A stretch of 32,000 nucleotides of DNA from Sideroxydans lithotrophicus ES-1 (lineage in GTDB: Bacteria; Pseudomonadota; Gammaproteobacteria; Burkholderiales; Gallionellaceae), in NCBI RefSeq assembly GCF_000025705.1, contig NC_013959.1:827063-859062 (forward strand), given 5' to 3'. Shown here piece by piece: positions 17,206-17,460 of this stretch. The position numbers and the translations under genes are program-made. Each line of letters starts with the position of its first letter. The first letter of the stretch is position 1. The notes beneath the pieces are model-generated. The model did not search any database, was not told the DNA's origin, and was given only the letters and a program-made list of their open reading frames with translations.

Positions 17206-17238
17206 GATGGTTCCATTTCATGTGGATACAGTCTGTTC

Positions 17239-17254
17239 AGCAATATCTGTGCCG
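17239..17254 (-). promoter_or_regulatory. sigma54 (-24/-12) promoter for nifLA
   Basis: The minus strand reads CGGCAC-AGATA-TTGCT, with correct GG-N10-GC spacing. Its downstream (-12) end at 17239 lies 33 bp upstream of the nifL ATG (17205). Confidence 0.6.
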
Positions 17255-17297
17255 ATGATTTTCCTTTCCGGCTCAACGGCGGCAATGACAGGCGGTT

Positions 17298-17313
17298 TGT
17301 CGCGTTTGCTACA
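17298..17313. promoter_or_regulatory. NifA upstream activator sequence (TGT-N10-ACA)
   Basis: tgt-cgcgtttgct-aca. It lies 107 bp upstream of the rnfA -24 element and 44 bp from the nifL -24 element. Confidence 0.6.
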
Positions 17314-17351
17314 TCAGGGCGCGCCCCGACCTGACAACGACAAAGGTTTTT

Positions 17352-17368
17352 TGCACCTGTATGGTGCG
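17352..17368. promoter_or_regulatory. NtrC-type enhancer site (TGCACC-N5-GGTGCA-like)
   Basis: tgcacc-tgtat-ggtgcg matches 11 of 12 consensus positions. It lies 98 bp upstream of the nifL -24 element. Confidence 0.5.
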
Positions 17369-17419
17369 CCCCGGTATCAAACGCCTGATTCTGTGCGGCT
17401 CGATCCTGCATGCATTCCT

Positions 17420-17435
17420 TGGCACGCCGCTTGCA
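17420..17435 (+). promoter_or_regulatory. sigma54 (-24/-12) promoter for the rnf operon
   Basis: TGGCAC-GCCGC-TTGCA is a perfect core consensus. It ends 25 bp upstream of the rnfA ATG, and an AGGAG RBS lies in between. Confidence 0.8.
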
Positions 17436-17460
17436 CTAAGGAGCACAGGAGATTATCGAT

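Follow-up and report, generated by a model that had tools for sequence, protein, structure and literature searches.

In most clades that possess NifL, the nifLA operon lies divergent from an rnf operon (Bueno Batista & Dixon 2019; PMC6490700), and rnf1 is regulated by NifA in Azotobacter vinelandii, Pseudomonas stutzeri and Azoarcus (A. olearius) (PMC6490700, PMC3916325). Yan et al. 2010 (PMC2820453) list both nifL and rnfA of P. stutzeri A1501 with a NifA site and a σ54 promoter. Mutation of ntrC in this strain lowers the transcript levels of nifA and rnf, and putative NtrC sites are described in the promoter regions of nifA and rnfA (PMC8443478). The rnf-nifLA spacer of the same strain was replaced in order to free the nifLA promoter from its native nitrogen control (Bueno Batista et al. 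2021, PMC8219145). In Azoarcus olearius BH72, a σ54 promoter is predicted for rnfA1, NifA sites precede rnfA1 and nifL (Sarkar & Reinhold-Hurek 2014, PMC3916325), and rnf1 is induced under N2 fixation (PMC3916325). The nifLA promoter of Klebsiella is cited as being NtrC- and σ54-dependent (Minchin et al. 1989, cited in PMC8443478 and PMC6490700).

The window, i.e., the whole stretch of 32 kb which was analysed, belongs to an iron-oxidising chemolithoautotroph of the Gallionellaceae (a Sideroxydans-type diazotroph). A literature search for nif regulation in Sideroxydans found no study, the match to PMC7784907 being to 'NiFe' only. A spacer of 255 bp (17206-17460) separates nifL on the minus strand from rnfA on the plus strand, and the two operons are divergent. 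On the minus strand, the σ54 activator gene nifA was assigned to an ORF starting with GTG at 14094-15680 (NCBIfam TIGR01817, 689.7 bits versus a cut-off of 528.85) and the anti-activator gene nifL to 15640-17205 (TIGR02938, 645.7 bits versus a cut-off of 242.45). Relatives keep both the nifL start codon, ATG at 17205, and the opening codons, which encode MSK; columns 17196-17205 are conserved to about 90 % or more. On the plus strand, rnfA (17461-18036), rnfB (18130-18687), rnfC (18851-20329), rnfD (20508-21575), rnfG (21577-22206) and rnfE (22351-23055) each scored above their NCBIfam subfamily cut-off. They form a complete Rnf1-type electron-transport operon, rnfABCDGE, at 17461-23055, which adjoins nifLA. 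The regulators needed for the schemes discussed below are present in the genome, a single contig of 3.0 Mb: an NtrC equivalog (709 bits) within a glnA-linked cluster and adjoining glnA, RpoN (454 bits, above cut-off) and IhfA (152 bits).

Four motifs were read in the spacer, namely a σ54 promoter facing each operon (P_nifL and P_rnf), a NifA UAS and an NtrC-type palindrome (dyad). For comparison, the 80 closest NifL loci were examined, almost all of them from metagenome bins of the Gallionellaceae that carry the labels Sideroxydans, Sideroxyarcus or Gallionella. A divergent rnfA stands beside nifL in 70 of the 80, and those were analysed; NifL identity across them is 62-90 %. Column conservation was taken from 61 aligned spacers of standard length, and spacing was counted in 71 loci. 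Counted back from the rnfA ATG, the motifs take nearly constant positions: -41 for P_rnf, -109/-110 for the dyad, -163/-164 for the UAS and about -222 for P_nifL. Motif columns are conserved to 0.86-1.00 compared to 0.53 for the rest of the spacer; the loci are kin and their counts are non-independent events, yet the neighbouring spacer columns have drifted. Random column sets reached the conservation values of P_nifL, the UAS, the dyad and P_rnf in at most 1 of 10000 cases. The sequence-only reading of this DNA had made its interpretation depend on conservation of the motifs in orthologous spacers, and conserved they are, in Gallionellaceae, in Thiobacillaceae-like and in more distant NifL-bearing relatives. 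By comparative criteria, the spacer motifs are thus clearly functional, and they are not chance matches.

The sequence-only reading had proposed a perfect TGGCAC-N5-TTGCA facing rnfA and a CGGCAC-N5-TTGCT facing nifL, and both -24/-12 promoters were found where it had placed them: P_rnf at 17420-17435 on the plus strand with 0 mismatches, and P_nifL at 17239-17254 on the minus strand with 1 mismatch (C for T at the first base). In both, the GG and GC doublets within TGGCAC-N5-TTGCW are exactly 10 bp apart. The pattern YGGCAC-N5-TTGCW matches twice in 32 kb, both times in the spacer, with 0.12 matches expected; none of 100 shuffles reached 2. The specified columns are conserved to 92 % for P_nifL and to 94 % for P_rnf in the 61 aligned loci, and for neither was a value as high obtained in 10000 permutations. 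P_nifL was found in 71/71 loci, in two of them with 3 mismatches, and in nearly every locus P_rnf precedes the rnfA ATG by 38-43 bp.

From the -12 GC of P_nifL at 17240-17241, a transcription start near 17228 is predicted, giving nifL a putative leader of 23 nt (17206-17228, minus strand). Its Shine-Dalgarno sequence is weak, being GGAAC here and GGAGC in relatives, where it appears as a conserved GCTCC at 17210-17214 of the plus strand. For P_rnf, a start near 17446 is predicted; the predicted rnfA leader of 15 nt would carry the Shine-Dalgarno sequence CAGGAGA (17446-17452, plus strand, columns conserved to about 90 % or more) at its very start.

A scan of the nifLA-rnf spacer for σ70 promoters and terminators found none, and an Rfam scan of the spacer at E ≤ 1 found no family. 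Because these scans were empty, they lend no support to a constitutive promoter or hidden RNA element in the spacer. The same result bears on the possibility that P_nifL is conserved but little used, nifLA expression being essentially constitutive, as in reports on A. vinelandii, with control exerted only post-translationally via NifL. Precedent comes from A. vinelandii itself, in which NtrC is reported to be uninvolved in nif expression (PMC8443478) although rnf and nifLA diverge there as well, from a spacer of 444 bp (PMC8219145). Here, however, a σ70-type promoter which could drive such expression was not found in the spacer, and the -24/-12 columns of P_nifL stay 92 % conserved across loci whose NifL proteins are 62-90 % identical while the neighbouring columns drift, which argues for selection on the promoter itself. 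We regard a little-used P_nifL as very improbable.

The NifA UAS TGTCGCGTTTGCTACA (TGT-N10-ACA, no strand) is located at 17298-17313, as the sequence-only reading had it; its centre lies at about -140 from the predicted rnf start and about -78 from the predicted nifL start. The number of such motifs was rejected as evidence, since TGT-N10-ACA occurs 5 times in 32 kb with 5.25 expected, i.e., at chance level for the window. The weight of the UAS comes from its position and conservation instead. TGT and ACA are 100 % conserved in the 61 aligned loci, and the UAS is present in 71/71 close and 9/9 distant loci. In the same genome, TGT-N10-ACA together with a σ54 promoter also precedes nifH, nifB, nifX-like, iscA-like and modE-like genes, nifE and one gene of unknown function. 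Scoring by position weight matrices had been suggested as a check of the sequence-only reading. With matrices built from other promoters of the genome, the UAS (matrix trained on 7 other nif UAS of the same genome) ranks 2nd in the 3.0 Mb genome and the dyad 3rd.

The dyad, TGCACC-N5-GGTGCG, occupies 17352-17368 (no strand), at the place given for it before. Its centre is at about -132 from the predicted nifL start and about -86 from the predicted rnf start. It differs by one mismatch from the classical TGCACC-N5-GGTGCA consensus, is the sole zero-mismatch match to the NtrC-type palindrome in the 32 kb window, and has half-sites which are 90 % conserved in the 61 aligned loci. NtrC-type dyads and σ54 promoters also precede glnA, an amt gene, nirB and the TorF-porin-glnK-amtB operon of this genome, and a symmetric matrix was trained on eight sites at these promoters. 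Under this matrix the spacer dyad is the best non-training site, although the genome-wide rank test is partly circular because the training sites were first chosen by their likeness to the same consensus.

Classical NtrC enhancers consist of two or more sites. Within the same genome, the number of NtrC-type sites per promoter is four at glnK-amtB and one clear site at glnA. The spacer holds one full NtrC-type dyad; relatives have an additional half-site (TGCACC) at a distance of 21 bp, which this window has lost, reading GGTATC instead. This single site, not a tandem pair, would suit an alternative in which the dyad is bound not by NtrC but by another σ54 activator, at least five further NtrC-family AAA+ activators being encoded in the genome, or by a repressor blocking the NifA loop to rnf, given that a protein bound between the UAS and the IHF-like site described below could interfere with looping. 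But the dyad, ranking 3rd in the genome, scores level with the best sites of glnA, amt, nirB and glnK-amtB, has only one mismatch to the classical consensus, and stands 114 bp from P_nifL, like the sites of the glnA, amt and glnK operons from theirs. Binding by a factor other than NtrC is therefore considered improbable.

Between the enhancers and P_rnf lies an IHF-like site, AATCAGGCGTTTG (AATCAG-N4-TTG), at 17378-17390 on the minus strand, with one mismatch to WATCAA-N4-TTR and its centre at about -62 from the predicted rnf start. Across the 32 kb window, one-mismatch matches to the IHF consensus are no more frequent than chance predicts (8 found versus 12.5 expected). The specified columns are 92 % conserved in the 61 aligned loci; 57 of the 71 loci match when A or G is allowed at position 6, and 17 match WATCAA-N4-TTR perfectly. 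The sequence-only reading was right in that an IHF-like site lies between the UAS and P_rnf, but its candidate, TATCAAACGCCTG, is at 17375-17387 and not at 17384-17396. Its plus-strand TATCAA was rejected as the IHF site, being specific to this window, with relatives reading GCACCAA there; the conserved site is the overlapping one on the minus strand. The nifA promoter of Herbaspirillum seropedicae reportedly has an IHF site with a role as well.

Distances between a site and a promoter run from the first base of the site to the first base of the -24 box. The dyad is 114 bp from P_nifL and 68 bp from P_rnf, and the UAS is 122 bp from P_rnf and 59 bp from P_nifL. Elsewhere in the genome, NtrC-type sites are found 112 bp (glnA), 110 bp (amt), 111 bp (glnK operon) and 58 bp (nirB) from their promoters, and NifA UAS 113 bp (nifH), 110 bp (nifB), 110 bp (iscA-like), 106 bp (modE-like), 90 bp (function-unknown gene) and 59 bp (nifE). 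The pairs dyad-P_nifL and UAS-P_rnf thus match the commonest geometry of each regulon, and for this reason NtrC acting on nifL and NifA acting on rnf fits. The sequence-only reading had proposed the same wiring, and 114 bp compared to 110-112 bp and 122 bp compared to 106-113 bp agree with it; the pairing itself goes beyond these distances, and a NifA feedback on nifLA is equally possible. It had further stated that the two loops must cross. The distances it gave are right: the far promoters are 107 bp (from the UAS) and 98 bp (from the dyad) away, and the near ones, which it had put at about 45-50 bp, are 44 and 52 bp away. The crossing would follow only from this wiring.

Spacing among the relatives differs between the two sides of the UAS. 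The distance from UAS to P_rnf is 120-124 bp in 67/71 loci and that from dyad to P_rnf 66-69 bp in 69/71. The P_nifL-UAS gap is 42-45 bp in 54 loci and ranges from 11 bp to 230 bp elsewhere, and because of this variation P_nifL would seem to tolerate variable enhancer distances. Repeat elements are inserted in the loci with gaps of 144 bp (L004) and 230 bp (L041). The gap of 11 bp occurs in L077 (same DNA as L108), in which the dyad is 81 bp from P_nifL; the UAS would be too close to P_nifL to loop there, which leaves the dyad as the enhancer. In the aligned spacers, the UAS, a conserved block of 24 bp described below, the dyad, the IHF-like site and P_rnf form a rigid unit, as would be expected of an IHF-bent NifA promoter.

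These measurements also bear on a wiring of nearest neighbours, in which the UAS serves P_nifL only (at about -78), the dyad serves P_rnf (at about -86) and the loops do not cross. The UAS-P_nifL distance of 59 bp is identical to that at the nifE promoter, the dyad keeps its rigid spacing to P_rnf, an NtrC-type site stands 58 bp before the nirB promoter, and rnfA of P. stutzeri is reported to be NtrC-dependent with a putative NtrC site (PMC8443478). However, rnf1 is NifA-regulated in each NifL organism studied (PMC6490700). The UAS at 122 bp from P_rnf with an IHF site between them is the classical layout of a NifA promoter and is rigidly kept, whereas the gap between UAS and P_nifL can be as small as 11 bp or as large as 230 bp or more. 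The rigidity of the dyad would be automatic if indels are not tolerated between UAS and P_rnf, and alone it is no argument for NtrC acting on rnf. Taken as a whole, nearest-neighbour wiring is unlikely, although NtrC may act on rnf in addition, as has been suggested for P. stutzeri (PMC8443478), the dyad being placed as rigidly to P_rnf as the UAS.

The analysis directly observed the motifs and how well they are conserved, that they fit the NifA and NtrC regulons of this genome, and that the factors are encoded. Together, these observations are best read, and we think probably correctly, as a shared control region in which NtrC activates nifLA, NifA with IHF activates rnf, and the UAS feeds back on nifLA. 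Protein binding, transcription starts and the pairing of enhancers with promoters are what we infer for this scheme, which would operate as follows. Under nitrogen limitation, phosphorylated NtrC would bind the dyad at 17352-17368 and loop to the σ54 RNA polymerase at P_nifL, 114 bp away, and NifL and NifA would be made. NifA freed by NifL would then bind the UAS at 17298-17313. IHF would bend the DNA at 17378-17390, allowing NifA to activate P_rnf 122 bp away, and the Rnf1 electron path to nitrogenase would be supplied. The UAS faces both promoters in the same phase, because 122 minus 59 bp corresponds to six helical turns and the UAS is palindromic. On the same helical face and 59 bp from P_nifL, it could also mediate a NifA-dependent positive feedback on nifLA, which is plausible given the equal distance at the nifE promoter.

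How far the NtrC-dependent part of this scheme extends was examined in more distant relatives. NifL was found in 14 of 401 genomes of an order-level sample. Nine distant loci, whose NifL is 44-67 % identical, were examined, and rnfA is divergent in every one; at ≤ 2 mismatches P_rnf is found in eight of them and P_nifL in seven. The dyad is patchier: it is present in family f57, occurs in 3 or 4 of the 5 genomes of family f26 and is absent from both genomes of f59. In f26 (NifL 47-49 % identical), some genomes have a degenerate palindrome, and its distance from the UAS is about 18 bp as compared to 38 bp in this spacer. Among the close loci, the dyad is degenerate (≥ 4 mismatches of 12) in 4 of 71. 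P_nifL persists both in these four and in the f59 genomes, and since it persists with a degenerate or absent dyad, NtrC would not be universally required. The NtrC link therefore looks evolutionarily labile, with the two promoters and the UAS as the apparent constant core. This patchiness hints that the coupling of nifLA to general nitrogen control may have been gained or lost repeatedly.

The conserved block within the rigid unit, GACCYGACAACGACAAAGG followed by a run of T, spans 17328-17351 (no strand) and had been missed by the sequence-only reading. Its mean column conservation is 79 % compared to a background of 53 %, a value equalled in 17 of 10000 permutations. The block is unique in the genome; at ≤ 2 mismatches, 25 matches were counted compared to about 19 expected by our own estimate. 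Its core CGACAA is an inverted copy of the left half of the UAS, TTGTCG. Inspected by eye, the block does not fit an additional NtrC site, another complete UAS, a σ70 promoter or a Pho/FNR/Fur-type box. As a speculative proposal, and a fairly unlikely one, the UAS, the block, the dyad, the IHF-like site and P_rnf might form a composite enhancer. NtrC and NifA would sit on one face of the DNA, separated by about five helical turns, and would act jointly or antagonistically on both promoters, and the block would be either a cluster of auxiliary NifA half-sites or the site of a third factor. If true, it would represent a design of enhancer sharing which has not been dissected in any nifLA-rnf system.

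Among the described systems, P. stutzeri A1501 resembles this locus in having nifLA divergent from rnfABCDGE(H), with σ54 promoters and UAS on both sides. It differs in that it is a gammaproteobacterium whose nif island was gained by horizontal transfer, and its spacer was compared through the published description. Azoarcus olearius BH72 shares a betaproteobacterial NifL-NifA system but is reported with tandem NifA sites, whereas one full UAS and the conserved block with its CGACAA half-site are found here. As far as described in the papers citing it, Klebsiella is like the proposed scheme in that its cascade begins with NtrC activating a -24/-12 promoter in front of nifLA, after which NifA switches on the remaining nif operons. 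In contrast, the enterobacterial clade is without rnf linked to nifLA (PMC6490700), and Klebsiella has no shared divergent spacer and no UAS serving a second promoter. The nifA promoter of Herbaspirillum seropedicae, as cited, is similar in combining NtrC and NifA sites in one betaproteobacterial σ54 region (Souza et al. 2000, cited in PMC6490700), but the organism lacks NifL and a divergent rnf and has a single promoter instead of a back-to-back pair.

The sequence-only reading had seen in the spacer a Klebsiella-like NtrC-to-nifLA cascade combined with Azotobacter-like synteny. The layout fits this description, but the combination is not new, as it is the published arrangement of P. stutzeri A1501 (PMC2820453, PMC8443478, PMC6490700). 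Modestly new are the rigid architecture throughout the family, the minus-strand IHF-like site, the conserved block of 24 bp and the patchy NtrC dyad. The analysis provides a testable promoter map of nitrogen-fixation control for the Gallionellaceae, which are environmentally abundant iron oxidisers. The layout is real and conserved and is already known from P. stutzeri and Azoarcus; it extends the known scheme and leaves current understanding unchanged. The nifLA-rnf spacer architecture, consisting of two σ54 promoters, a UAS, an NtrC-type dyad and an IHF-like site, is kept well beyond the model organisms.

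The spacer between the NifA UAS (17298-17313) and the NtrC-type dyad (17352-17368) holds a conserved block of 24 bp at 17328-17351, consisting of GACCYGACAACGACAAAGG followed by a T-run. In the spacer comparison, this block was kept across the Gallionellaceae, and the more distant NifL-bearing relatives of family f57 retain CGACAAG. A genome-wide search returned a single occurrence. At its core, CGACAA is the mirror image of TTGTCG, one half-site of the UAS, and the block as a whole fits none of the site types tried.

On the other side of the full NtrC-type dyad, at a distance of 21 bp or two helical turns, a TGCACC half-site is present in roughly half of the relatives. 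Among the related loci L001-L076, its alignment column corresponds to 17373-17378 of the window, which reads GGTATC, and the half-site of the relatives overlaps the IHF-like site. NtrC and IHF may compete for binding there in those relatives.

Several related loci carry insertions. In L011 and L060, about 145 bp with inverted ends were inserted directly 3' of the original rnfA start codon, and the far end of the insertion regenerates an ATG; the insertion has the appearance of a miniature mobile element. The rnfA leader of L030 contains another, unlike repeat of about 125 bp. In L004, L041 and L024, the stretch separating the UAS from the nifL promoter is interrupted by palindromic repeats (ccctctccc/gggaggg type) that span 100 to about 290 bp.

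Elsewhere in the window, three TGTGGCA...ACA matches to TGT-N10-ACA were located in multihaem cytochrome genes (30245, 31367 and 31574). One of them ranks fourth under the matrix trained on seven other nif UAS of the source genome. These matches are probably repeats of the coding sequence and not regulatory sites.

Two further regions with NtrC-type dyads were observed on the source genome contig (G000:C1). An operon comprising a TorF-family porin, glnK and amtB (69382-72200; locus L081) lies behind a σ54 promoter, and four overlapping NtrC-type dyads are found 80-124 bp upstream of this promoter. At 1822834-1822988, a good dyad, GGCACC-N5-GGTGCA, is located 154 bp upstream of a σ54-like promoter; the gene behind it encodes a protein of 834 AA, a putative glycogen phosphorylase judged by its N-terminus.

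NifA-type promoters occur on the same contig. A second divergent σ54 promoter pair, with nifB on the minus strand and a nifX-like gene on the plus strand, is located at 823806-824090, approximately 3 kb before the window, and the two TGT-N10-ACA sites between these genes are common to both promoters. At the nifE promoter (889419-889493), the sole exact UAS is unusually near: the distance from its TGT to the -24 box is 59 bp, placing the UAS center at about -78 from the predicted start. The same distance of 59 bp separates the spacer UAS from the nifL promoter (17239-17254, minus strand).
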